64,000 nt of DNA, from NCBI GenBank assembly GCA_900128565.1, contig LT635913.1:1-64000 (forward strand), read 5' to 3'. Under the pieces are notes generated by a model. It was given only the letters and a program-made list of their open reading frames with translations. It did not search any database and had not been told where the DNA came from. Shown here piece by piece: positions 10,495 through 64,000 of this stretch (positions within the stretch are counted from its first letter, which is position 1; every line of letters begins with the position of its first letter). Both the position numbers and the translations under genes were made by a program. Source of the DNA: Stramenopiles sp. TOSAG23-6 (lineage: Eukaryota).

Positions 10495-10823
10495 TGAACT
10501 ACTGTATACTGGAAAATAAATTTATTGGAAAGAGTTATTGTTTTAAAATAAACAATACTAAAANTATTGTCGGTTGATAATACTTCGTGGCCATGTTGTT
10601 GCCTGTCATTGATGACGTGGTCAAGATTCTTGGCTTGATACCCGGTAATTATACCAACGCGCGAAGTTCGAAGTTCGATACCGACAGTCGTCCGCTATAG
10701 TACGGAGGGAAACTCTTTCTAAAGTATTTAGTACATAGTGGATGTCATTAGGAAGAAAAGAATATACAGCTGATGATATATTAGGTCATATAAAACGAAA
10801 TTGTAAGGAAATTTGAAAAATAA

Positions 10824-18332: not shown

Positions 18333-18422
18333 ACCAATAATAAAAAAAATTGTAAAAAAAAATGTTGGGTATAAAATTTCGTAGGAAATTACTCCTTAAA
18401 AAAATCAATTTTGANAAAATAC
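18333..18422 (-). other. Degenerate introner-family copy B in non-coding (UTR) DNA
   Basis: Minus strand GTATTTT...CCTACGAAATTTTATACCCAACATTTTTTTT matches the family core; 3' end approximate. Confidence 0.55.
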
Positions 18423-18547
18423 TCTGTAAACAATAGCTAATCATATCAATATATTTTCTCAGCTGAAAAATTAAAAAAATGGTAAAACACAAAAAGTTGA
18501 CTACTATTTTAAATTTATATGCTATCCTTAATGAGTTAATGAATAAA

Positions 18548-20545
18548 TCATAATTGCATACTTTTGACTTGTTTGATGATATGCGACATTCTGATTTCAT
18601 CAATATTTCGCTGAATGTCCATTTTCCATCCCCTAATCTTACTGGGATGTCCAACGCAGTTAGTAGGTAACACTGGAACCACAAAGGGTACACGTTTACC
18701 TGCTATCCCTAGTTTCACCATACTATTTCCATCATTTCTACTCGATGACAATTCTTTGGATTCTTCATTACCTTTATTATTTTGTGTAGCTACTACTTTA
18801 CACACATTTGGGTGTGTTTGATTACTTTGTTTCATATTTTTACTGGCATTTTGATTAATATTGACACAATTTTGCTGTTTAAAAAAATCTGGCCACATAA
18901 CATCGTTGTCAAACGTTTTCGCTGTACCGTCTTCAACAGAAACATTACTGTCATCATTACCACTATTCTTAGTATTTTGTTTTGTGTTACTTATTTCAGT
19001 GTTCTTTGCTTTATTTTGAAGTTTTGAAACTTTCCCTGACTTTTTTAATTTTTTTTGTGCTTTGGAGACTATGCTAGGAGTATTGATAGTTATACTTTTT
19101 CCTTCACCAGGAAAGTTTGTTTTGGTATCCTTAGTAAATACAAAGGGTTTTAGTATGAGACTTGATAAAGAGACAGCAACATTATAATTTTGTTTCTCTT
19201 TTTCAGTTTTAAGAATAATTTTATGGTTTCGTGCAGTACAACCTTGTTCTTTGTTTTCAATGACAAACCGTTGACATGGGCTATTGCAACACGGATATAT
19301 ACCTAAATGTTTACCTGAATTTTGAATTCTTGTATTGCTAGAGATACCATCATTTGTATGTTTTGTCGAGAAACTTTTAAAAATTGGTTTTTTAGGGTGA
19401 TATGTGCAGTTTCCAATTTCAGCTATTGGAATGCGGCATTTACAACGTGCACAGTACACACTTCTAGAGAAGCCCCATAATTTCCAGTATTGTTCCGAGT
19501 AGGATAAACCTGCTTTTTGCATTATATCTATTTCCATAGCAACCGTCCATCCTTCTATTGGGCTATGTTGAGATATTACATTACCACGAAATCCGATAGA
19601 TATTTTAGTTTTTTTACAAATTAACTGAGAGATTTCGCTGGAGAGATAAATTTTCTCACAAAATTTACATTTTTTTAATAAACCTGTATTTTCTATCCAA
19701 GCCCCTGCTGATGGCATTTGAGGTATATCAGACAATCTAGCATCTGAACCTATTCTATCAACTTTTTTTTTTTTTTTGTTTTCTATAGTAGAAAAACTTC
19801 TCAAGAGTTGTTTTCCTTTGTTTTCATTGAGCTTTGGGGATTCTGACTTTTTGGAACATGATTTATGTAATAGATCAAATAGAACATTTTGTTGAGTCGC
19901 AAAAGCTTCGATTTTTTTTTGGTAAAGTTTCGGAATGATTTTTCCTCGCTGGTCCTCTATAACACCTAATATATTGCTAGGTAATATTGTGGCTAATCTA
20001 CGACACAAATCAGAACTCAAACAATTTAAATCCAGAGGTAAATTTACAATTGCTTGCAAGTTATTGCCAACAAATTCAATACATTTTGTAACAAGATTGT
20101 CCATGCCCAGGAAATCTGATGAAATTAGTATTGACACGACAATGTTTGTGTTGAGCTTTGGTAAAGTATTAGTTTTATGTATATATTGAACTAACCATTC
20201 AAAAATAGTGACATCACAGTGTACAGAGATATCAATATCATCATATGCTCCAGTACCGTCGAGGTACTTTGAGAAATATTTCATTTCTTTGAGCAAAATG
20301 TCTTTTTTACATACAAAGTCTCTATTTATTTGTCTTGGCTCATCACAAACGTGAATCAAAATTGTTTCAACCTCTGTCTCATCTATTTTCACTATAGGTG
20401 CATCTGTCGTGTGCATACTTGTCTGCGGGAGTTCTTTTGTTGAAGAATTAGTATTAAGTTTAGTTTCCTGTTTTTCATTATCAACCCCTGACAGAATTTC
20501 TAGTATTGGTTCCTCTAGCACCCTATATTCTAAGCCAGGATACAT
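18548..20545 (-). CDS. SANBR/KIAA1841-like (DUF3342, BTB) protein
   Basis: IHVCDE...RDFVC...LLKEMKYF...DISVHCDVTIFEWL, ILISSDFLGM, C-terminal QR.ID..RM. Confidence 0.88.
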   Translation of the reverse strand: MYPGLEYRVLEEPILEILSGVDNEKQETKLNTNSSTKELPQTSMHTTDAPIVKIDETEVETILIHVCDEPRQINRDFVCKKDILLKEMKYFSKYLDGTGAYDDIDISVHCDVTIFEWLVQYIHKTNTLPKLNTNIVVSILISSDFLGMDNLVTKCIEFVGNNLQAIVNLPLDLNCLSSDLCRRLATILPSNILGVIEDQRGKIIPKLYQKKIEAFATQQNVLFDLLHKSCSKKSESPKLNENKGKQLLRSFSTIENKKKKKVDRIGSDARLSDIPQMPSAGAWIENTGLLKKCKFCEKIYLSSEISQLICKKTKISIGFRGNVISQHSPIEGWTVAMEIDIMQKAGLSYSEQYWKLWGFSRSVYCARCKCRIPIAEIGNCTYHPKKPIFKSFSTKHTNDGISSNTRIQNSGKHLGIYPCCNSPCQRFVIENKEQGCTARNHKIILKTEKEKQNYNVAVSLSSLILKPFVFTKDTKTNFPGEGKSITINTPSIVSKAQKKLKKSGKVSKLQNKAKNTEISNTKQNTKNSGNDDSNVSVEDGTAKTFDNDVMWPDFFKQQNCVNINQNASKNMKQSNQTHPNVCKVVATQNNKGNEESKELSSSRNDGNSMVKLGIAGKRVPFVVPVLPTNCVGHPSKIRGWKMDIQRNIDEIRMSHIIKQVKSMQL

Positions 20546-31710: not shown

Positions 31711-33620
31711 TTACCTACGTTTCTTTGTATCAGATGGTGGACATGGTGAATTACCACCATATGAATCTACAAGGCCAACAGGCATAAAATTTGGTAAAAG
31801 ACCAGTTGGTGTACCAGTACTGCTACCTCTGCGTCTACTAGGAGTTAGACGAGGAGAACTGATTTGAGGTAAATCTTTGTATTCTGGAATAGTTTTTGAT
31901 GCGTCTGCTTGAAAAATTTTCTCAAGTTTTTTCAGATCAAAAGAAATATCTTTTAATACAATACCATCACTGCAAACGCCACACGCAGTAAGTGGATTCC
32001 AAATTTCATTACTTTTACGATCACCATCCCCACGCATTTGACGTCTTCTTTCAAGTTGTGCTTTTTTTAGTTGAATTTTATACTCGGCAGTGATTAATTT
32101 CCACACTTTATAGGTTGCATCACTTACACCAGTTCCAAGATATGATGCCATTCGTAATTGCATATTATTTGCATATATCAAAGAATTCTCTTTTTCTTTT
32201 TTCGTAGGATACTTTATTATGAAAAAATATTTTTTTTTGTAAAATTTGTTAGGTACGGAATTTTCTATGAAAAAAAAAAATAATAATAATAAAAGCATAC
32301 ATGAACCGGAAGGATTTTCACTTCCATTCTTTGGACAAATTGACAACATGATCGCCATATTAGATCCAGAAGTTCACAACCACCAACCTCTCTACCAGTA
32401 TAACAAGGATTGAAATTACTGTATGGCATTTTGAAAGCTATTAATTGGACAGGTTCCCCCGCAGCAAACGCTCCTCCATTAAATCGAAACAAAGCTGCTT
32501 GGTTGTCACAGGTACCTTCGGGGAATATCATTAATTGTGGAGCATCATCCGATTTGTCTGTTGCACGAGCTTTTATATCTTGTAATGTTTTTGATTTCGA
32601 TTTTGGATCCCATCTATCTACAAGTAGTGCGTCTAAGACCCTACAAATTCCACTAAATAAAGGAAGACGGGTATTTTCTATTGCCGAAACGAAAGATGGA
32701 AAGGATAACGCTGACACCACAAGTATTTCTACTGCTCCGATATGGTTGGGTATAAGCAGTTTGCACTTTTTTGGATCGCAAAATTTTCCTTCAATCACAA
32801 CACGATGGTAACCTAAAAAACTGAGTGCTGCAAAGACAATCATCCGAACGGGACCAAAAAGCCAAAAGTTTCTCCAACGTTTACTTGGAAAAATCGCTGC
32901 CACATTCATGAGACATACACCAATAGTAATAGCAAAAGCAAACATGACAAAGCGAAATAGAGCAAAACCAGTTACTGTAAATATTATTGTTTTGTATAAT
33001 TCATATCCTTTCAGGGGTGTAGTATATTCAGTAGCTATTGCTTTGGAAACTCGTGGAATTTTATCCAGTGGTGTCGGTTTCTGTGGCCAGTTCCAGCCAC
33101 TTCTTGGCAACCCTAACATGTATCGCAAATTTTCCACCATAAACAGAAACACATGTGTCATTAAAAGTAGTTCTATATATATTAGAAGATATGATCGCCA
33201 ACCTACACCTTGAGGAAAATATTTAGACTCTACTATACCTAATTTCATTGTATGAAAGCCTGTAATTAACTTCGTTGAGGGAAAGCCTGTTACAGCATTC
33301 GCAGCATACTCTCCAAATGCATGCCAAGCTGCCCAAGTGCTCAATGTCATACCCTCAAATTCTTCCAGAGATATTTGGCCATCTTTATCTTTATCAAGTG
33401 AGTCAAAGAGACCTCGAATAGCTGACTCAACTTTACCTTCAACAGATTCAAACACTCTTTCTTTCAACATTTCTGCATCTTCCAGCATATTTATAGCTGC
33501 ATTATTGAAATCCTCCAACTCCAATGAATCCAATGAGTCTGAGCCATCCCATATCGGAAGATACCTGACTAAATTTAGAAGATAAACCAATGCAAGAGCA
33601 AAAACGAGGCGCTCGATCAT
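31711..33620 (-). CDS. Lysophospholipid acyltransferase (LPCAT-like) with EF-hand; 2 exons (33620-32301, 32211-31711)
   Basis: PNHIGAVE, IFPEGT, FNGGAF; splicing restores LPVH|YPTKKEKENSLIYANN. Confidence 0.88.
32212..32300 (-). other. Intron, family copy C, GT-AG, 89 nt
   Basis: CAT|GTATGC...CCGTACCTAAC...AAATATTTTTTCATAATAAAG|TAT; joins two ORFs in frame. Confidence 0.9.
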
Positions 33621-36098: not shown

Positions 36099-38024
36099 AT
36101 GGCAGATGTGTCAGAAACATTTGAGCAGTTTTTATGTATTAATCGTCGACAATATCGTATTTTGAAAAAAATTGGAGACGGTGCATTTTCGGTAGTTTAC
36201 TTAGTCCAGGCTGACGGCGCTTCTCGCAAACTTGTTGCCAAGGTTGTAAACACGGTTCGGCCTGATGTAGCTGCACTTGTCCGGAAAGAAGTTTCTATAA
36301 TGAAGCGTGTTGATCATCGTAACATCGTAAAATTTGGAGGATTTGAACAGACCAGTAGACGCGCAATAATTTTAATGGAATTCTGTAAAGGTGGTGATTT
36401 ATGGGCTTGTTTAAGGAGACGGCGTGGAACGAGTCTTTCTGAAAAGGCTATTTTACAGGTAATGAAAGGGGCTTGCCTATCTGTATCAGTTTTACATGGA
36501 CGATCTCCTCCAATATCCCATTGGGATATTAAAATGGATAATTTTTTGCAAGGTGATGAGCATGCGATAAAGCTATGTGATTTCGGCTCATGTCAAGAAC
36601 CTGGGATTGTACCACTTATGACTAAGAAACAGCGTAATAGAGCGAAAGAACTTATTGAACAGTATACATCTCCAGTATATAGAGCACCAGAACAATGTGA
36701 TTTTTTTGGTCATTCAAACCTAACTCCAAAAGTGGATATATGGGCCATTGGCTGCGTTTTATACTGTCTCGCTTTTCAGTTCCATCCATTTCGTGACGCT
36801 GGTGTTTTAGGCATCTTATCTGGCAATTGGGAGTATCCCAAGGAAAGAGGCAAATATTTTTCCCCGGTAATAAAGATACTTCTTGATCGTTGTTTAGAAA
36901 AAGATCCAATAAAGCGAGCTGATATATTTGAAATTGTAGAACGAATCGAATCAGCACTAGGTGGAAAAAAATATGTCGAAAGAAAAAAGAAAAATACTAA
37001 AGAAGAAGAAGAAGTTGTGTTGAATGTAGCACATTCAAAGCGGGAAGCCAAAGAAAAAAAAAGTGCAAAAAAAGAAGCATTGCGAAAACGACGCGATAGA
37101 AAAGAACGAGCAGCTCTTGTAAAGGCAGCTGCTGCAAATGCCACACTCCCTGCGAAAAGAAATAAACACAAATCAAAATCTTCAATAGTAAAAAACAAAA
37201 ATAGTGCGTATACAGAAGCTCTGTGGGATGATGATGCATGGGGTATTACAACTGATAATAATACTACTAATGATGATAATGATGCATGGGGTATTACAAC
37301 TGATAATAATACTACTAATGATGATGATGCATGGGGTATTACAACTGATAATAATACTACTAATAGTACGAATGATGATGCTGATGATGCATGGGGTATT
37401 ACAACTGATAATACTACTACTGATGATAATGATACTGATGTATGGGGTAGTGTTGTCGATAACGCTGCGTTCACAAAATCTAAACCCTCTAGCTTTTACA
37501 CGTCATTAGAACATCGTGCTGAGGAAAATTCATCTGAATCTTCAGATTCTGACAAAATATCAAATAGATTAAATGATGATACTAGTGTCGATGATATATT
37601 TGTTCCAGTGTCTTACAATGAAGAATATGACAACCTCTTTGGTGACGAGGATAATCAACCAAGTATGCCAGTATCAAATGGGGTGGATAATAATGGACAT
37701 GTTAAAAATTTTCAATCGTTAAACCCAAATCCAACAGGTACGACGTTATTTGATGAAGCAATGGCAGTTACCAAAAAAACTACAACTAAAATGAATTTGC
37801 CACATTCGAGCAACGCAACAAAAATTGATGCTGCATTTGGTAGTATAAGCTTGCAGAGTACGAATAAGTATGATAGTTATAACCCTTTTTCGAACGATGC
37901 TATTTTGAATGGAAATCAGTATCACTCAAATAAACCACAAAATGTGTACCAACAACAGCAGCGACCACGAAATACAGCAGGATATTTTAATACCAAAACT
38001 CGTCATAATGATTCGTTTCGTTAA
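36099..38024 (+). CDS. NAK-family (AAK1/GAK/BIKE-like) Ser/Thr kinase with acidic DAWG repeat tail
   Basis: GDGAFSVV, PPISHWDIKMDN, KLCDFGS, YTSPVYRAPE, DIWAIGC; start taken at MADVSETF. Confidence 0.88.
   Translation: MADVSETFEQFLCINRRQYRILKKIGDGAFSVVYLVQADGASRKLVAKVVNTVRPDVAALVRKEVSIMKRVDHRNIVKFGGFEQTSRRAIILMEFCKGGDLWACLRRRRGTSLSEKAILQVMKGACLSVSVLHGRSPPISHWDIKMDNFLQGDEHAIKLCDFGSCQEPGIVPLMTKKQRNRAKELIEQYTSPVYRAPEQCDFFGHSNLTPKVDIWAIGCVLYCLAFQFHPFRDAGVLGILSGNWEYPKERGKYFSPVIKILLDRCLEKDPIKRADIFEIVERIESALGGKKYVERKKKNTKEEEEVVLNVAHSKREAKEKKSAKKEALRKRRDRKERAALVKAAAANATLPAKRNKHKSKSSIVKNKNSAYTEALWDDDAWGITTDNNTTNDDNDAWGITTDNNTTNDDDAWGITTDNNTTNSTNDDADDAWGITTDNTTTDDNDTDVWGSVVDNAAFTKSKPSSFYTSLEHRAEENSSESSDSDKISNRLNDDTSVDDIFVPVSYNEEYDNLFGDEDNQPSMPVSNGVDNNGHVKNFQSLNPNPTGTTLFDEAMAVTKKTTTKMNLPHSSNATKIDAAFGSISLQSTNKYDSYNPFSNDAILNGNQYHSNKPQNVYQQQQRPRNTAGYFNTKTRHNDSFR
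37227..37450 (+). repeat. Coding tandem repeat (DDDAWGITTDNNTT)n, about 5 units
   Basis: gatgcatggggtattacaactgataat repeated 4 times plus a diverged DVWG unit. Confidence 0.9.
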
Positions 38025-38149
38025 ATAAAATAAAAATGTATATCTTTCGTCACTGAAAATTTATATACAATTAATTTATACACTCCGTCGTTTTTTTCAC
38101 ACTAAAATTTGTTATAATATTTATAATTACGCAAAATAAAGTTTCGTAT

Positions 38150-38220
38150 TCATCAGTCTCAGAACCCCCAGTGGCTATGTAGATTATTAGCCTTGTCCAT
38201 AGGTTCGTCAATGGCGGTAC
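38150..38220 (-). promoter_or_regulatory. SECIS element (type II) in the GPx 3' UTR
   Basis: Minus strand UGAC-GAACCUAUGG-ACAA-GGCUA(loop)UAGCC-A-CUGGGGGUUC-UGAG: GA/GA core, about 10-bp stem, apical AA, ministem. Confidence 0.8.
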
Positions 38221-38258
38221 ATTTTGTTTATTATTTTCACAAGTTTCGAAGAAGAAGT

Positions 38259-38726
38259 CTAGGCAAGCCAAGAGTGCATCTTATTGTCCAAATAAGCAGA
38301 TGTTATCTTCTGAGGGAATCTCTCGAGTACTTGACCGTTGCGACCAACAACGAACTTTGTAAAGTTCCACTCGATAGGTTCTGAGAATTTTCCAGAGCGT
38401 AGGAACTGATATACATCCTGAGTAAACTTACCATTGACATCAGCTTTCTCAAATAGGGAAGATGCTGGCAAGCCATACTTTTCAACATAAAAAGCTCTTA
38501 CTTCTTCGGGTGTCCCAGGTTCTTCATCACAAAACTGGTTACAAGGAAAGAATAATACGTCGAGGCCCTTGTCTGCATATTTCTTTCCAAGAGCTATAAG
38601 ACCTGGAACGTCACTGATATCTCACAAACTTGCAACATTTACAATCAGAACGACCTTACCACTAAATTGAGTGAAGGACACTTCTTGGCCTGAATTGTTT
38701 CTTGCGCAAAGGTCTGTAAACGACAT
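38259..38726 (-). CDS. Selenocysteine-containing glutathione peroxidase (155 aa, Sec35)
   Basis: GKVVLIVNVASL-TGA(38622-38624)-DIS...FPCNQF..EEPG...IEWNFTKF; frame is open across the TGA; SECIS downstream. Confidence 0.93.
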
Positions 38727-39667: not shown

Positions 39668-42047
39668 ATGTCGTGTCCTATTCATGCTGTTCGAAACATG
39701 AAAATTTCACCAGGTACATGCCCCATGCATACGAATAAAACTGCCAATATGGCTGGAGACTGGTGGCCAAATCAACTCAATCTAACTCCTCTGAAAAGTC
39801 GGAAAGCGTCCAAACCTCAATCATCAACGTTTAACTACGCTAAAGAGTTTGCAAGTATTAACCTTCCAGAGTTAAAGGAAGACATATTTAAGCTCATGAA
39901 AACCTCTCAAAGTTGGTGGCCTGCTGATTATGGACATTATGGTCCATTCTTTGTACGTATGTCGTGGCACAGCGCTGGTACTTACCGAGTATTTGACGGG
40001 CGTGGTGGAGGTGGAACAGGTATGCTTAGATTTGCCCCGCTTAACTCTTGTAAGTAATATTTTTTGTGTAGTTTTCTCCTTAATGTATCATTTTTCCATT
40101 ACACTTATTTCTCTGCTCATTATCTTTATTATATCATCATAAAATATATGGCCGGATAATGGAAATTTGGACAAAGCTAGGAGATTATTATGGCCAATCA
40201 AAAAAAAGTATGGTCGCAAATTATCTTGGGCTGACCTAATGATTCTAACTGGAAATTGTGCTATGGAATCAATGGGATTTAAAACATTTGGTTTTGGTGG
40301 TGGCAGAGAAGACGTGTATGAACCTGAATCTGAAGTGTATTGGGGTGCGGAAAGAACTTGGCTCTCTGCTGAAAGAGGTGGGTTAGGTGATGCCCTTCAT
40401 AAACCTCTAGGAGCTGTACAAATGGGTTTAATTTATGTCAACCCTGAAGGTCCAAATGGAGTTCCAAACCCTCTTCAATCTGCCGAAGATATCCGTACTA
40501 CATTTGGTAGAATGGCGATGAATGATGTAGAAACTGTGGCTTTAATTGCTGGAGGTCATACGTTTGGTAAGGCTCATGGGGCAGCTGATCCTGGTGTTCA
40601 TGTTGGACCTGAACCAGAAGGTGCTTCAATTGAAGAGCAAGGTACAGGTTGGAAAAATTCTTTTCAAACTGGTTCAGGTAAGGATGCAATTACGTCTGGT
40701 CTCGAAGGAGCTTGGACAGCAAATCCGATACAATGGGACAATGGCTACTTTGAAAATTTGTTTGGTTATGAGTGGGAATTAAGTGAATCTCCTGCTGGTG
40801 CCAAACAGTGGGTGCCAAAAGACAAGAGCGAAGCGACAATGAATAAAGTCCCTGATGCTCATGTGAAAGAAAAACGTCACCCTCCAATAATGTTTACAAC
40901 TGATCTTGCACTCATTATGGATCCAAAATATAAGGTTATTTCGAAACGTTTTCACGATAACCCGGAGGAGTTTCAGTTAGCTTTTGCCAAGGCTTGGTAT
41001 AAACTAACGCATCGAGATTTGGGACCAGTAAATCGTCTTGTCTCCGCTATTGGTGGAAATGTTCCTGAAGCACAACTTTGGCAAGATCCAATACCAATGT
41101 CTAATTCTGTTATTGGTGACTCCGAAATTCAAGAACTCAGAACTGCTGTACAATCTATGTTAAGCGGTGGATCTCTTTCCGTTTCACAATTGGTGAAGAT
41201 TGCTTGGGGTTCTGCGAGTTCTTTCCGACATACAGATTTTCGTGGAGGTGGTAATGGTGCTCGGATTCGTCTCGCTCCTCAAAAGAATTGGGAAGCAAAT
41301 GATCCAGATGAGTTGCAGTCAGTTCTTGAAGTTCTTGAAAATGTACAGAATGATTTCAATAACAGTCATGCTACGAATCCTGTATCTATCGCAGATCTAA
41401 TTGTTCTTGCTGGAAGTGTTGCAATTGAGAATGCAGCGAAGAAGGCAGGTCATGAAATGGTAGTACCATTTCGTCCGGGTCGAGGAGATGCAACCCAGGA
41501 AATGACTGATGTTGAGTCATTTTCTTATTTAGAACCGACTGCTGATGGTTTTCGTAACTATTTGGGACCAGAAGCAAAACAAGGCGAAGCTACACCAGAA
41601 GCTCAACTTGTGGATATGGCACACTTGTTGACGTTGTCAGCTGCTGAAATGACAGTATTGGTTGGTGGTATGAGAAGTCTTGGTGCAAATTCAGGAGGTT
41701 CAAATGTTGGTATTTTAACTGATAATCCAGGGATTTTGTCAAATGATTTTTTCGTTAATTTGCTCAACATGGGAGTTCAATGGGGAAAAGATCCAGAAAA
41801 TCCTGATGCTGCAGTTGCAAAACAAGCTGGACAAGTTGACCCATACCGGGGTACCTACATTGGCCGAGATAGAGAATCTGGAAAGATACGTTGGAGAGCC
41901 AGTCGAGTTGACCTTATATTTGGTTCTCATTCTGAACTAAGATCATTTTCAGAGTATTATGCTTGTGATGATTCCAACAAAGTTTTTGTTGAAGATTTTG
42001 TAAAGGCATGGGTAAAAGTGATGGAATTAGACAGATTTGATGTATGA
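39668..42047 (+). CDS. katG: Catalase-peroxidase; 2 exons (39668-40049, 40150-42047), 759 aa
   Basis: [75 protein letters not shown]-terminal LDRFD. Confidence 0.96.
40050..40149 (+). other. Non-canonical intron GT...AT, 100 nt, not a member of the repeat family
   Basis: TCT T|GTAAGT...CATAAAATATAT|GG CCG GAT restores the invariant Trp of NSWPDN. Confidence 0.88.
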
Positions 42048-44435: not shown

Positions 44436-45456
44436 TCATAAAATTGTCTCTGTTCTTTTTTTAGTACTACTTTGAACAATTTCTGCAACGCCACCCAAAT
44501 ATGGTTGGACAGCAAGAGTCCAATTACATGATCCAGAGACTGACGTCGATCCAATTTTTATATCATTCTTAAAGAATATTACCTTGATATTATCGTTGCA
44601 CACATTTTTGTGATTTTTTTGATTTTTTTGATTTGTTTTATTTTCATTTGCAACAATTTTTACTCCAATGGTGTCACCCTCCGTATATACGTTTTCATTT
44701 ACGCTGTTTTTTTCATCAACACCAAAAGACGTTTCTTTCCTATTATTCATCAATACTCCGCGTGAGTGCCAAACAATAGCATTTGGTGTTCTACCCAAAC
44801 TTTTGAATGGTGCTTTCATGCTGTTTTTTGCAATTCCTATTAAAATGTGTATAGTACTTGAATTATAATATTAATAAATAAGAGTATAACTATGACGGAT
44901 AATATTATATTTTTCAGTGCAAAATGTAGAAAATACCAGCAAAACCACCAACACCATTTTTGATTACTTTGACCTCCCAATAGCATTGAGGTTTTTCTTT
45001 ATTATACACTGCCAGACATGCACCATAGCCTGCTTGGCGAGTAGTCGCCACAACCGTTCCCATAGGAGAGATATCGAGATGTTGGTGATGTCTTCCCCAT
45101 ATACAACTCTGCAAATCGCGCTCATTTTTGTTTTGCTCTATATCTGAGAAAAGTTGCTGTGTCCAAAGCGGTACTCGTAATTCAGATATTTTTCTCGGCG
45201 TTTTTGTAATGCGTTTCACCGGTATTTTAGTGCCGTCCACTGCGATACCTCTAACCCGACGCGACCTTCGTTTTGGTAGAGGTGCAGTATTCTCTGTTTG
45301 TTTCTTTTGTTTATGAGTCAGTGTTCGCTTTTTTGGTTTACCGATTACAGCTGTATTTTTATTCGGGTCTAATCCAAGACTCCGTAAAACTGCTTCATTC
45401 TTTTTTATGTTTTCAAGGCGCCTTATTTCATAATTTGATAGTGTTTGCATTGTCAT
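44436..45456 (-). CDS. SPRY-like domain protein with LSNYEIRRLENIKKN N-terminal motif; 2 exons (45456-44937, 44836-44436)
   Basis: YWEVKV...GFAGIA...GDTIGVK...VIFFKND; GT-AG intron restores the frame. Confidence 0.72.
44837..44936 (-). other. Intron GT-AG, 100 nt, non-family
   Basis: GCT G|GTATTT...TTTTAATAG|GA ATT joins two ORFs in frame. Confidence 0.75.
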
Positions 45457-55078: not shown

Positions 55079-57145
55079 TTATAAATTAATAGTCGTCAAC
55101 TCTGTGCCGTCATCGTCCATATCACACTGCGGTTCATCCATATTTCCATGAAGTCTGACATGAACATCATCAGTGTATAATATTTCCGAGTTTGGCATTT
55201 TATCCGAACTCTCTAAGGAATCACTTGGTCGGCCTAAAGGTACTAAATATGGAATGAGAAGTATTGGAAGTAATCTTGTTAAACTGCGGGTCAAAACAAG
55301 CAACTCAATATTATGAAATTCAGGAGCACGAACACCTCCAAAGACTTCCAATAGCCCAACTCCAACATATCCTCCAATGACAGAACCAAAATTTGAAAGG
55401 CCCATTGTCATTGCAAAAAGTGTTGCCTCCATTTTTGGTGGGCATAATTTTGCTGCTAGAATAAAAACTGGCATTGTATTAAATCGACTTATTAAAGGGG
55501 ATATAACTTCTTCGCCTAGCATGAAAGCTTTATCTGATATTCCAAGACTTTTGTTCCAACGTTGAACCCAAATAAGATCCATGTATTGTGAAAAAAAAAT
55601 GTTTTAGTATAAAAAATCCATAGGTACGAAATTTCATACCAACAAGAAAAAACAATTAAATTCATTTTTCAAAACGTACATGAGATTGACAAATACAAGT
55701 GCCAGTTGAGTCATTGCAAAGATTTTTCTGTATGGCCATGAACTAAAATATCTATTGTATAACGCCGTCCCAATGACAAAAAAAATATTTCCTAGAACGC
55801 CAAACCAGGAGTGAATAATGTGAAAAAATATTTTTTTTGTCAAGAAAAATGTTAGGTACAAAATTTTTATGGTAAAAAATGAATGAAAATTCAATTTTGA
55901 AACCATACATAATTTAGGTGAAAAACAGGGACGTTCTCCATAGACCCCATTACAATTTTCTGGGGTTTCTTTTGACCAGTAGTAGATAACTTCTGAATAT
56001 GGTTGCATTGCTCCTTGTAAGAAGATATAAATTGTTACTTGAGCTAATACAGGATTGATTTTAGATTCATAGTAATGTATAACGTAGCAAACAACTACAG
56101 CAATGAGTATACTAAATATACATATTACTGAATTATCAGATACAATAGAAGCAAAACCACCCTTTTCTGAAGAACATATTTTGTATAGTTTGATATTTGT
56201 TAGGTACAGAATTTGGTATAAAATTTAGGTAAAACATTCATGATGAAAACATACCATTGTCAAAGATATAGCACAAACAAATAAAGCCATTTTGATCATC
56301 ACGCCTTGTTTACCATTATTAATTGCATCTTTTAAAGGTTGAATATTTGAACATTTTCTATACGGAGGTTTGTCACGCTCTTCGGGTAGCCATCTTCGCC
56401 AAGCAGGAACCAGTACGGCTAGTGCTGGTATAACACATAAACCGAGAAGGACACGGCTACCAAACCATTCATAAAGAATTCCAGAAGAACAACCAGCAAA
56501 AATTTGACCAATTCCTAAAGACCCCCAGCATAACGTCTGCAAATCAGCGGCATATTTTGGGCGTTCACGACATCTTTTAGCGACAGATGCATCGATCATT
56601 ACATCAGGGGATGCGATGGAGTAATTAAACATAATCAATAATATTGTAACTATTGCAATGCCCAACCCAGGAGAAAAGGCAAATGATAGAGTTGAAAATA
56701 CTCCTGAAAATCCAGCTATACCAATATATGGAGACAGGTGAAGTCCTGAAATTGGAAGTGTATCACTCAATACACCATACATAGATTTAAGTTGCCATGG
56801 AATGTTCCCCACTCCTGACACAACCTGCATTCTATCGGAAGATAGTCCAAGCCCTTTGTGCATTGTTGATTCCGTATCAGAGAGCAGATACCGCATTGCG
56901 AAGAATCCCCAACCTTCACCAATTCCTTGGTTCACACCATACACAGCAACGACAGAAAGCACAAAATATAGACCGAATGTTCTCGTTAACCGGGAAAAAT
57001 ATTTGGCCAGCGTACAAGGAAAAAACATTACATAGTCCACGAATTCTGGATTAACAGGAAGTGTATGAAAGTCACGTATACTTGAATCCATACTTTGGTC
57101 TAAATCAAGGCTATCATCTGTCAATGGATCAAACTTTTGGTCCAT
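55079..57145 (-). CDS. BT1 folate-biopterin transporter; 4 exons (57145-56255, 56161-55909, 55812-55680, 55580-55079), 592 aa
   Basis: PWQLKSMYGVLSDTLPI, DVMIDA, ADLQTLCW, D.IWVQRWN..LGISD, AKLCPPKMEATLFA..MGLSN; exon phases add up. Confidence 0.9.
55581..55679 (-). other. Intron, family copy D, GT...AT, 99 nt
   Basis: CTC AT|GTACGT...GGTATGAAATTTCGTACC...TTTTTCACAATACAT|G GAT gives VNLMDLIWVQRWN. Confidence 0.85.
55813..55908 (-). other. Intron, family copy E, GT...TC (best guess), 96 nt, stop-free
   Basis: TTA T|GTATGG...TGTACCTAAC...AAATATTTTTTCACATTATTC|AC TCC TGG gives FSPKLYSWFG; no AG near the end. Confidence 0.65.
56162..56254 (-). other. Intron, family copy F, GT-AG, 93 nt
   Basis: ATG|GTATGT...CTGTACCTAAC...TTCAGAAAAG|GGT. 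Confidence 0.88.
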
Positions 57146-57419
57146 TGAGTGTGCTGTATTGGCAGAGTTGATATAATTATAACTTAGGCATTTGAATGAT
57201 ATTAACAAGTCATAAAAAATAAAATTGACAGCATGCGCAAAAAAGTAATTATTCGTGTTTTTTTTTTCTGTTAGGACTTCGACTTGACTACTTCGGTCAA
57301 AGGTATTATATATTACCCAGCTAGGGTTATAGTGTCTCTCGAATTCTTGCTCTAAACACACTTCTCTTCACACACTTCTATACCTGTCGAAAAAATATTT
57401 ATCTTAATCTTTTTATATA

Positions 57420-60873: not shown

Positions 60874-63800
60874 TTACCAAGTTGCTTCACTTGGGTATTT
60901 TCTGTTATTCGTCACTATATTTTGCCTCGCGGATTCCATGATGTTAAGCTGTTGTTTTTCCAGAGTTATCTTGCGAATCCGAGCAGCTGCTGTACTGCCA
61001 TCCCTATTTTGTTTCATTCCGCATATAGAACAACCTTTACTAGGTAAAATATGGGAAGGATTAATAAAGGTACATGTATTTTGGAAAAATATTTCAAAAA
61101 CAAAAAACTTGTTAGGTACAAAATTTCGTACGAAAAATAAATTCTAAAAAAAAATAAAACATACATGTGTTACATTTCCATGGTGCATTTTGTTTTTCTG
61201 TATTATCACTATGCCAAACACTTGTTGCGCTTTTCTTCTTCGGTATACTTTTCCATGATTTTATGGAGATGTTGGAAAGATTTGCATTATTTTCATCATT
61301 TAGATGACTTTGATATTGAAAATTCGAGGTTTGAAAATGTTCACTACTTCTGATATAATTTTCCATCATAGACGATTTTTCATTAGCTTGTATTGTAGAG
61401 GGATGACGACTATTATTAGAATTGAACGTATTCATGCCAGATGATTCGAAATTATTACTTGTTTTTTTTTGGATCGAATGACGCGGGAAACTGCACAATT
61501 CACATTTTGTTGCATCACGATTAAAATTCTCATATGTACACATTTTACAAACCCAATCGGAGGAGGTAGAAGAAAAGGAAACCATGGAGTTACATCTCCC
61601 ATCAATTATATCTAATTCTGAATCATCATCGCGTGTATACGCTGCTTGTACTTGCTGTAATTGTTCTTCTGCGGCCGCCGCTAATGCTTTCAATTTTCTT
61701 GTTTCATCGTCAGCTTTCTTTGCGGCTATGCGATTTTCATATTCAATGCGTTCTTGTTCAATACGACGTTCTTGTTCAATACGACGTTCTTGTTCAATAC
61801 GACGTTCTTCTTCAATGCGACGTTCTTCTTCAATACGACGTTCTTCTTCAATACGACGTTCNAGTTCAAGACGCTCTTGTTCAATACGTTGTTCAATACG
61901 TTGTTGTTCAAGACGTTTCTGTTCAATATTCTGAGATAACACAAAGTCCAAAGTCTCGTTTGCAACATCTGCACATTCGCGACAAGCTGCATTAGCACAA
62001 ATAACAGCAGTATAAGCAGCAGATGCCGCGTTGACACAAAAGGTCTCATTATCAAGAGAATTTGTATTATCAAACTCATTAGCAGCATTGATCATTTGCA
62101 GAGTTCCATTTTTAAATTGGTAAGATTTTGAAGGAGTAATCATCAAAGAATTATTGGCATCATTTACTGCAGCATATTGATCATCATGAAAAGTATTGAT
62201 TACTTCATTCTGTTTAAATATATTTGTATCATCTTTCAATTCTTGTTTCGATCCTTCCAGTGAAACTGTAGCTTTATCTTGTGGTTGTCTTGTAATAATA
62301 TTTGATTCAACGGCTGTTGATTTCCATACATTTTTACTATATGTAGCAGCCTTCGGCAAAGTAGTTGCTTTCTTTCTCCATGAATCTATTTCTGATCGTC
62401 CTACGGTTTGTTCTATAGGGTTTCTTGGAAAGTATGTATTGTGAAAAAATATTTCAAAAAAAAATGTTAGGTATAAAATTTCGTACCAAAAAAAAACTAG
62501 ATTTGAAATTCATGATGGAAATGTACATAGCGGTTTAGAAATTCTTGCAGTTGTACTAGAATGTTTCTCTCGTTGGCTAGGACGTTTGGAAGATATAGGT
62601 GGATAATTTACATTGTTGACTCCATTCGTGTATTTCGTGTATTTTTTTTTTGTTGTTGATGTTGTACTGATTGAAGTTGTTGACGATGAGGCAGAGTTTA
62701 TATCGTTCACTTTCGCTCGAGGGACCAAATTTGATTGAGATACAGTATTAGAAGTTGCTGATGTCACAGGTACATCTGGATTCCTTTGAAGAATTTCACA
62801 CACCATTTCAATAGCACGAATGCATGTATTGTGAAAAATATTTTTTTTTAGTTACAAAAATCGTTAGGTACAAAATTTGGTACGAAAACAAAAATCAGGT
62901 AGAAAAGGGATGATGGAAATGTACATGCATTAGATGATGGTCCTTTGACAACAAGTTCATTAAGACCTTTGTACATTGGTTTTGATGACTCTTGTACAGC
63001 TAGAGAAGTACCTGCATTGTAAAAAAAATAGAAATTAGAAATTCGTTAGGTACAAAATTTTCTAGTAAAAAAAATTAAATCTAAAATTCATAATTAAAGA
63101 GTACCAGTCTCTCGCATAATACGTTTGATGTTGCAACCTGAGGTACCTATTACAGTACCACGCTCTCTTGCAGTAAGTGAATGAAATGGTATGTAGGAAG
63201 CAAACCTTTGCAAAAATTCTGTGGCTTTTGTATGAGCGGCTTGAACTGCCGTGTCTGTACCCGTTATTGTAGCGATGAAAGTTTTCCGGTCAATTGAATA
63301 AGTTGCACCTGTTTCATCTTGAATTCGTTGTATTGTCGCACCTCCAGGACCAATGAATTTAAGCATTTTTTCAAGTGAGCCAAATTCAAACGTTTTCTGT
63401 GAAGATGACATTGGGCGGGGTTTCTTTTGAGATTGTGAGTTTCGTTTGACTGGAGCAACAACAGTTTTTAATGGTACCTTACGAGCTCGTGTGTATGAAG
63501 GAAGGACTCCACTCTTCCCCCAGGCACTCCGCACTATTCTAGGCTTAGGATGAGATTGATTTGACAAGCCACCATCATCTATATTTGATGTTGTGATGGA
63601 TTTGACTGAATCGATGTTAGATCTACAATAAGGACAACTAGCTGCCTGTTTCTTTGCTAGAAAGGTCTGACGCCAGCTAGATAAACACCCATCGCAGAAT
63701 TGATGACGGCACGGTCCTATTTCCACATCAACCAGATTAACCGTACAAACAATACATATGCCTTCAGAATCACTCTCCATACAACTGTTAATTTTATCAT

Positions 63801-63933
63801 CATCCAGATATGGCTTTATTGCAGAAGAATTGAACTGAGGTGGTAAGTGATTATTGTCAGATATGCCTTCAACTTCAAGATTCATAGATGTGAACTTTCG
63901 TCTGAAAGACAAAGGCTCAGAAAAAGTGCTCAT
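60874..63933 (-). CDS. RING + 2xKH + coiled-coil + 2x RanBP2 zinc-finger protein; 5 exons (63933-63105, 63011-62925, 62823-62527, 62433-61165, 61073-60874), 893 aa
   Basis: CIVC..PCRHQFCDGC..CPYCR RING; IGPGG and IGTSG KH loops; splicing completes KH2 and WKCNT|CTFIN..CSIC; all four introns phase 1. Confidence 0.88.
61074..61164 (-). other. Intron, family copy G, GT...AT, 91 nt
   Basis: ACA T|GTATGT...CGTACGAAATTTTGTACCTAAC...TTTTTCCAAAATACAT|GT ACC restores a RanBP2 finger. Confidence 0.88.
61750..61930 (-). repeat. 18-bp coding repeat (RRIE[E/Q]E)n, charged single-alpha-helix/coiled coil
   Basis: ttcaatacgacgttcttc/g repeated; contains one N at 61862. Confidence 0.9.
62434..62526 (-). other. 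Intron, family copy H, GT...AT, 93 nt
   Basis: CTA T|GTACAT...TATACCTAAC...TTTTTTCACAATACAT|AC TTT; contains an in-frame TGA so it must be removed. Confidence 0.8.
62824..62924 (-). other. Intron, family copy I, GT...AT, 101 nt
   Basis: GCA T|GTACAT...CGTACCAAATTTTGTACCTAAC...TTTTTCACAATACAT|GC ATT gives KGPSSNACIRAIEMV (KH last helix). Confidence 0.87.
63012..63104 (-). other. Intron, family copy J, GT-AG, 93 nt
   Basis: ACT G|GTACTC...TTGTACCTAAC...TTTTACAATGCAG|GT ACT gives IMRETGTSLAV. Confidence 0.9.
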
Positions 63934-64000
63934 GATCTTTTGAATACGCTAAGGTAATGTTGTATGTTTTCTTTGTGATGGAAATAAATCAATTTAATGA

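Follow-up and report, generated by a model that had tools for sequence, protein, structure and literature searches.

The catalase-peroxidase gene and its interruption

The subject of this analysis is a catalase-peroxidase (KatG) gene, and the short segment that interrupts it, on the plus strand of a 64,000-nt stretch of DNA from Stramenopiles sp. TOSAG23-6 (contig LT635913.1, positions 1 to 64,000), referred to below as the window. The gene spans 39668-42047 and is interrupted by exactly 100 nt. Two plus-strand reading frames make it up: one starts with the ATG at 39668 and meets a stop at 40055-40057, and the other, open from 40143 on, closes with the TGA at 42045-42047. The sequence-only reading that preceded this work had given the junctions as AAC TCT T/GTAAGT and AAAATATAT/GG CCG GAT AAT; these letters stand at 40041-40055 and 40141-40160, and the earlier coordinates proved correct.

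The results from phmmer searches against the catalase-peroxidases in the PDB indicate that exon 1 (E value 4e-40) aligns with residues 6-118 of 5l05_A, and that exon 2 (E value 2.5e-230) aligns with residues 119-727 of the same chain, with Trp 119 as its first residue. Taken together, the exons show similarity over the full length to the solved KatGs, which are two-domain class I peroxidases, and exon 2 also matches the Pfam family PF00141 (E value 3.3e-60). The join is contiguous at residues 118/119 of 5l05_A, with zero residues lost or gained relative to the solved KatGs. Because no residue is missing and none is extra, exactly 100 nt must leave the message. The distal-side motifs are both present, one of the RMxWHxAGTYR type in exon 1 and the WPDN at the start of exon 2. 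Mapped onto the Mycobacterium tuberculosis chain 2cca_A, the join lies between positions 134 and 135 of the chain and is followed by W135, P136, D137, and N138; Asp137 and Asn138 in this numbering line the distal haem pocket. The gene is otherwise undamaged, with 759 codons, no stop and no frameshift, and no other long frame of the window reaches its codon-usage score, a crude measure. Compared with the bacterial enzymes in the PDB, the protein has about 15 inserted residues, encoded at 41790-41870 (+).

Anatomy of the KatG intron

The sequence at the two junctions allows the cut to slide. The equivalent cuts, computed by script, are TG..TA, GT..AT, and TA..TG, with no fourth, as had been proposed, and GT..AT is the sole register that starts with GT. 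None of the three ends in a canonical acceptor, the last two bases being TA, AT, or TG, which bears out the earlier exclusion of both GT-AG and AT-AC for this intron. The hexamer at the 5' end, GTAAGT, matches the general consensus complementary to U1. The 100 nt carry stop codons in all three frames. Between 40040 and 40185 the dinucleotide AG starts at positions 40053, 40070, 40175, 40179, and 40182, and at none from 40071 to 40174. The segment 40050-40149 appears to be a true GT-AT intron of KatG, removed by a spliceosome of the major type, a reading to which we assign a probability of roughly 0.65.

The segment is flanked by a 2-nt direct repeat, TG; terminal inverted repeats were looked for in it and none were found. 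Its predicted fold is unremarkable (minimum free energy -6.2 kcal/mol; z -0.78), 45 of 200 shuffled sequences folding as well. Two internal features were also observed. An 18-nt direct repeat (40074-40091 and 40120-40137, plus strand; 78% identity) includes TCCTTAAT in its first copy, and pairing of TTTCCATTA in the intron with TAATGGAAA in exon 2 would loop out the 3' splice region.

The downstream AG and the public gene models

An in-frame join is also available at the first AG beyond the intron, where the excision of 40050-40176 (127 nt) would cost the ten residues that follow the join, WPDN included. The best database match, P0001, carries a source label that describes it as a coding sequence from a MAST-3 stramenopile gene set; it is the same KatG gene, identical at every retained residue, and it is built in precisely this way. 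Were the cell to splice likewise, the product would be a KatG-like protein lacking the decapeptide. A scanning spliceosome would choose the first AG downstream of the branch site, and the AG at 40175-40176 is the first past any plausible branch site. The decapeptide, however, contains a WPDN found in 239/239 of the KatG relatives fetched (NSWPDN in 235/239), and it is identical in two stramenopile KatGs, P0013 and P0059; an intron would not stay so. Since WPDN is universal among these relatives, coding constraint must act on the stretch directly after 40149, which can only be exonic. The earlier claim that use of this AG would delete a conserved decapeptide therefore stands.

Mapped back to the window, P0001 contains seven "introns" of 72, 127, 51, 36, 33, 36, and 24 nt, all GT..AG. 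The six other than the 127-nt one cut an uninterrupted open frame and remove conserved residues that can be aligned to the solved KatGs, e.g., GTYIGRDR. The neighbouring public model P0391, for the BT1 transporter gene on the minus strand, errs alike. This gene carries three members of the family of repeat introns described below, and the model is correct only at the member ending in AG; the other two it gets wrong, dropping PCFSPK...SWFGVLG and MDLIWVQRWNKS and reading into an intron. Both models, checked over 39668-42047 (P0001) and 55082-57145 (P0391), force GT..AG. Because six impossible "introns" of 24-72 nt accompany the acceptor at 40176, P0001 is, as judged from the sequence, a reflection of gene finding restricted to GT..AG, and not of RNA or of what the cell does. 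We consider splicing to 40175-40176 very improbable.

A published pipeline for single-cell genomes of uncultured stramenopiles combined GeneWise, est2genome, SNAP, and GAZE, and the word "splice" is absent from the available portion of its description (PMC5778133); P0001 need not have come from this pipeline. Since such models force GT..AG, proteins catalogued for the group may have conserved sites deleted.

A family of repeat introns in the same window

The word GTACCTAAC occurs seven times in the window, always on the minus strand, against 0.13 occurrences expected. It forms the core of a family of short repeats, and the count confirmed that it is missing from the KatG intron. A profile built from eight copies and run with nhmmer, all filters off, returned ten copies at E<=1e-4; each sits on the minus strand, in or adjoining a minus-strand reading frame. 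The same search gave no match to the KatG intron at E<=10, in agreement with its earlier placement outside the family. The hosts are a KH/RING gene (four copies), BT1 (three), and an acyltransferase gene (one); of the remaining two copies, one is itself truncated by the start of the window and the other is the partial one at 18352-18422. The eight resolved copies are oriented as the host gene. Clustering is strong, with three copies in the BT1 gene (55082-57367, minus strand) and four in the KH/RING gene (61074-63948, minus strand). The partial tenth copy (minus strand; E value 1e-4) adjoins an N in the tail of a BTB/SANBR gene.

Family copies are 89-101 nt long and have inverted ends, ATGTAY...RTACAT, most with a 2-nt flanking repeat that is usually AT. 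From the core CTAAC to the 3' end is about 37-45 nt, a spacing like that of a branch site. When copies are excised, long open frames reappear, and in BT1 so does the alignment with homologues. Seven copies fold no better than shuffled sequences (z +0.19 to -1.43). Six viral-contig loci matched a 17-mer of the family core, in the core region only and with weak profile scores (E values 7e-5 to 1.4e-3); they do not resemble family copies and were treated as chance.

Counting KatG, nine introns were resolved in the window, and six of them, KatG and five family copies that sit in conserved genes, permit no register ending in AG; the other three end in AG. These numbers bear on the possibility that the KatG intron is an ordinary GT-AG intron whose T at 40149 is an assembly or base-calling error, or a mutation private to the sequenced cell. 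A single T-to-G change there would give ...TATAG/GG and an identical mRNA; the window, with at least two N, is draft sequence, and the sequencing runs possibly behind the assembly are small. Such an error would nevertheless have to strike this single base, and the five independent family introns that also lack AG cannot all be errors. P0001 avoided 40149 as if a T stood there too, although that model may derive from the same assembly and so is perhaps not independent. An error or private mutation at 40149 is, in our estimation, very unlikely.

The family also bears on whether KatG is a fresh pseudogene in this lineage, with the 100 nt newly inserted and never spliced out. Transposon-like insertions are active in this genome, to judge from ten family copies per 64 kb, and the KatG segment is flanked by its TG repeat. 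Against this, the segment has neither terminal inverted repeats nor a relative in the window, it opens with a consensus donor, and the gene that it interrupts shows no other damage and has, on the crude measure given above, the highest codon-usage score of the long frames. We give a fresh pseudogene slightly less credence than a wrong base at 40149.

The ends of the KatG intron do resemble those of the family. Its final 9 nt, AAAATATAT, are one base off the AAAATACAT of copy c61119, and when all window positions are scored with matrices from four family copies, its 3' end ranks among the best 0.7% and its 5' end among the best 0.6%. The likeness may represent a shared 3' signal or a distant common descent; four sequences are too few to choose between them. 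The context AAAATAYAT/G, shared by the 3' ends of KatG and the family, is a possible cue for the choice of AT.

The register used by the family

Four complete copies (c55625, c61119, c62474, and c62871) permit both AT..AC and GT..AT. The AG of c32256, c56207, and c63053, which are GT..AG introns, aligns to the column that holds AT in the other copies, and this favours the GT register for the family. Copy c55859 behaves otherwise. The three BT1 frames are one genomic frame, and at c55859 the GT..AT join (94 nt) shifts the exon that follows out of frame, irrespective of intron length. In a profile of 56 BT1 homologues, excision of 96 nt at this copy beats excision of 93, 90, or 87 nt by about 5 bits, and the same profile does not separate the AT..AT register (664.9 bits) from GT..TC (664.5 bits). 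With AT..AT the joined sequence reads SPKFHSW, and its Phe is found in 11/16 of the homologues bearing the PCxSP motif, including all the closest; with GT..TC a Leu stands there instead, which occurs at this position in 0/16. As read from the sequence, then, an AT start or a TC end is needed for at least one family intron, and AT-AC/AT-AT is a good possibility for the family as a whole.

The earlier proposal that KatG fixes the register as GT..AT consequently holds for KatG itself and is not supported for the family: the KatG intron, lacking homology to the family, does not fix the family's register, and c55859 cannot be GT..AT. The coordinates of all these features are collected in Table 1.

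Table 1. Features of the KatG gene, its intron, and the resolved repeat introns of the window
Feature	Position	Strand	Remarks
KatG exon 1	39668..40049	+	ATG 39668; ends ...RFAPLNS plus first base of a Trp codon (phase 1)
KatG exon 2	40150..42047	+	GG of Trp, then PDNGNLDKA...; stop TGA 42045-42047
KatG intron (GT..AT register)	40050..40149	+	100 nt; equivalents 40049-40148 (TG..TA) and 40051-40150 (TA..TG)
GTAAGT donor hexamer	40050..40055	+	read from the sequence; canonical U2-type donor in one of three registers
CTCAT, candidate branch site	40116..40120	+	fits yUnAy; about 30 nt before 40149; predicted from sequence only
TCCTTAAT, U12-branch-like	40077..40084	+	about 66 nt before 3' end
AT at intron 3' end	40148..40149	+	stands where AG is expected; the intron would be canonical if 40149 were G
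Perfect 9-nt inverted repeat	40093..40101 and 40157-40165	+	intron arm TTTCCATTA, exon 2 arm TAATGGAAA; possibly chance in AT-rich sequence
First downstream AG with in-frame join	40175..40176	+	acceptor used by public model P0001
c55625, BT1	55581..55679	-	99 nt; CA..TA, AT..AC, TG..CA, GT..AT, TA..TG; homologues continuous over join (...VFVNL/MDLIW...)
c55859, BT1	55815..55910	-	96 nt; AT..AT or TA..TA (alternative GT..TC 55813-55908); GT..AT out of frame
c56207, BT1	56162..56254	-	93 nt; GT..AG
c61119	61074..61164	-	91 nt; eight registers including AT..AC and GT..AT; no AG end
c62474	62434..62526	-	93 nt; AT..AC, TG..CA or GT..AT
c62871	62824..62924	-	101 nt; registers including AT..AC and GT..AT; no AG end
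c63053	63012..63104	-	93 nt; GT..AG
c32256	32212..32300	-	89 nt; GT..AG

Comparison with known intron classes

U12-type introns have the donor consensus RTATCCTT and a branch site, TCCTTAAC, about 10-26 nt before the 3' end. The 100 nt of KatG might be removed by a divergent, U12-like minor spliceosome, or by a structure-guided excision such as that proposed for the non-canonical introns of euglenids and Amoebophrya. The end pairs seen in the window (GT-AG, AT-AC, AT-AT, and GT-AT) are pairs tabulated for the U12 type in the available text of PMC1557818; the GT..AT of KatG lies within the set AT-AC, GT-AG, AT-AN, and GT-AT given there, and according to the same text the U12 machinery splices AT-AN and GT-AT introns in tests. 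The segment TCCTTAAT (40077-40084) resembles a U12 branch site, and the family ends are inverted (ATGTAT...ATACAT). The donors, however, GTAAGTAAT in KatG and ATGTAYRTTT in the family, do not match RTATCCTT, and TCCTTAAT stands well past the usual U12 distance from 40149. The KatG intron and seven family copies fold no better than shuffles, so that the stable pairing of ends expected of structure-guided excision is lacking in KatG. No small nuclear RNA gene was found in the window by Rfam, which is a weak point for 64 kb. Removal by another route is thus unlikely, if somewhat less so than the explanations weighed above.

AT-AC introns occur in a U12 and a U2 type. In the family, four complete copies allow AT..AC and c55859 fits AT..AT, a known variant. 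By contrast, KatG has no register starting with A, and the donor ATATCCTT is present in none of these introns.

We return to the KatG segment as a probable GT-AT intron of the major type. The available text of Sheth et al. (2006; PMC1557818) lists rare animal GT-AT introns of both the U2 type (e.g., in DGCR2) and the U12 type (7 cases). They share the terminal pair with KatG, and the U2-type cases also combine a good 5' site with an odd 3' end. According to that text, however, the animal GT-AT introns are isolated exceptions among 10^5 introns, whereas here six of nine introns in one 64-kb window lack AG.

Another parallel is Amoebophrya, a marine protist with many non-GT-AG introns, some of them repeated elements with inverted and direct border repeats and hence an ambiguous register, as described in the accessible part of PMC7789003. 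According to the same part, its introns have no preferred end pair and carry inverted repeats of 8-20 nt that form hairpins. The introns of the window differ from them, with ends that are few and regular and no fold that beats shuffled sequences, and the KatG intron is without terminal repeats. In the tunicate Fritillaria borealis, the major spliceosome has adapted genome-wide to non-AG 3' ends by way of U2AF subunits that are duplicated and divergent (PMC13326754, as far as its text was available). This is the closest mechanistic precedent for the earlier suggestion that the cause lies in the host machinery, although Fritillaria is an animal, 95% of its introns are affected, and its 5' ends are non-GT too (same text).

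The GTACCTAAC family itself resembles introners, the transposon-derived introns of marine protists: its copies are short, have inverted ends and a 2-nt flanking repeat, lie in sense orientation in genes, and restore the frame on excision. As described in the available portions of PMC9860276 and PMC12130899, introners have GY..AG ends, the surveys of them start from annotated introns, and MAST is not mentioned. The KatG intron, unlike introners, belongs to no detectable repeat family. A literature search, supplements aside, turned up no paper that describes non-canonical splice sites for MAST stramenopiles.

Other observations in the window

A glutathione peroxidase gene (38262-38726, minus strand) carries an in-frame TGA at 38622-38624, in the place of the catalytic Cys or selenocysteine (...VNVASL*DISD...). 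The apparent split of this gene was considered as another intron case and rejected, the cause being the in-frame TGA and no intron. The protein is probably a selenoprotein; no selenocysteine insertion sequence (SECIS) element was detected by Rfam in 37900-38300 or in the rest of the window, and the Rfam scan of the whole window gave no match of any kind. Candidate GT..AG introns outside the family were noted at 44870-44914 (minus strand; GTATTT...AATAG) and at 18500-18570 (minus strand; ending in TTTTTCAG), both unverified and in host genes without a Pfam match, and a third unverified canonical candidate lies at about 10520-10600. A codon-usage scan aimed at additional small exons failed to tell coding and antisense frames apart.

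Proposed mechanism and implications

A complete enzyme would require that the mRNA join 40049 to 40150. In the mechanism that we consider the most likely, a spliceosome of the major type would combine the GTAAGT donor with a 3' site that ends in AT, branching at a site such as the CTCAT of 40116-40120, and would tolerate U instead of G as the last base of the intron. The same or a related tolerance would be needed for at least five of the transposon-like repeat introns of the window, which lack AG. For KatG the sequence establishes how the gene is built, that the protein is restored exactly, that a usable AG is lacking, and that the intron stands outside the repeat family, whereas we infer the splicing itself, the machinery responsible, and the choice of AT among the many nearby.

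Several points weigh against a GT-AT intron in KatG. Many AT dinucleotides lie just upstream of 40149, and AT alone cannot specify the site. We know of no structural rationale for a pairing of G(+1) with U(-1) at the intron ends. The matrices with which the ends were scored were built on four sequences only, and KatG is the only non-family intron resolved in the window. The sole public model, P0001, continues from 40049 at 40177, although this model is plainly faulty. Finally, no same-species protein spanning the join was found in a set of 5.8 billion proteins: a search with exon 2 among proteins of near length returned P0001 only, and one with exon 2 residues 1-70 among shorter proteins reached at best 88% identity, all matches being from other organisms. 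The terminal 20-mer of exon 1 gave 0 matches in metagenome contigs and 0 in viral contigs, and the 80 loci returned for the first 85 KatG residues, at 39-58% identity, included no close relative.

The sequence-only reading had gone further, taking the use of non-AG acceptors to be a general property of the host. Because six of the nine resolved introns of the window lack AG, a relaxed choice of 3' site as a general host property is plausible on the sequence, but the generalization still leans on a single intron outside the family. The host is a marine stramenopile, and the source label of P0001 points to the MAST-3 group. That this lineage routinely splices introns not ending in G, as GT-AT in the ordinary, non-repeat intron of KatG and with AT-AC, AT-AT, or GT-AT ends in introners that are mobile and continue to spread, is a tentative proposal to which we give a little less than even odds.

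Should it be true, the public gene sets of the group would be systematically wrong at non-AG sites. The lineage would also provide a new, independent example of a spliceosome whose 3' site chemistry is relaxed, and its repeats would be the first family of transposons observed to create non-AG introns. The terminal AG of introns is among the most constant signals in eukaryotic genes, and the lineages that escape it, Fritillaria, Amoebophrya, and the euglenids, each showed a change in the spliceosome. A free-living and abundant marine stramenopile would join them as a new and tractable case, its non-AG ends being few in kind and regular, and carried by a young repeat family.

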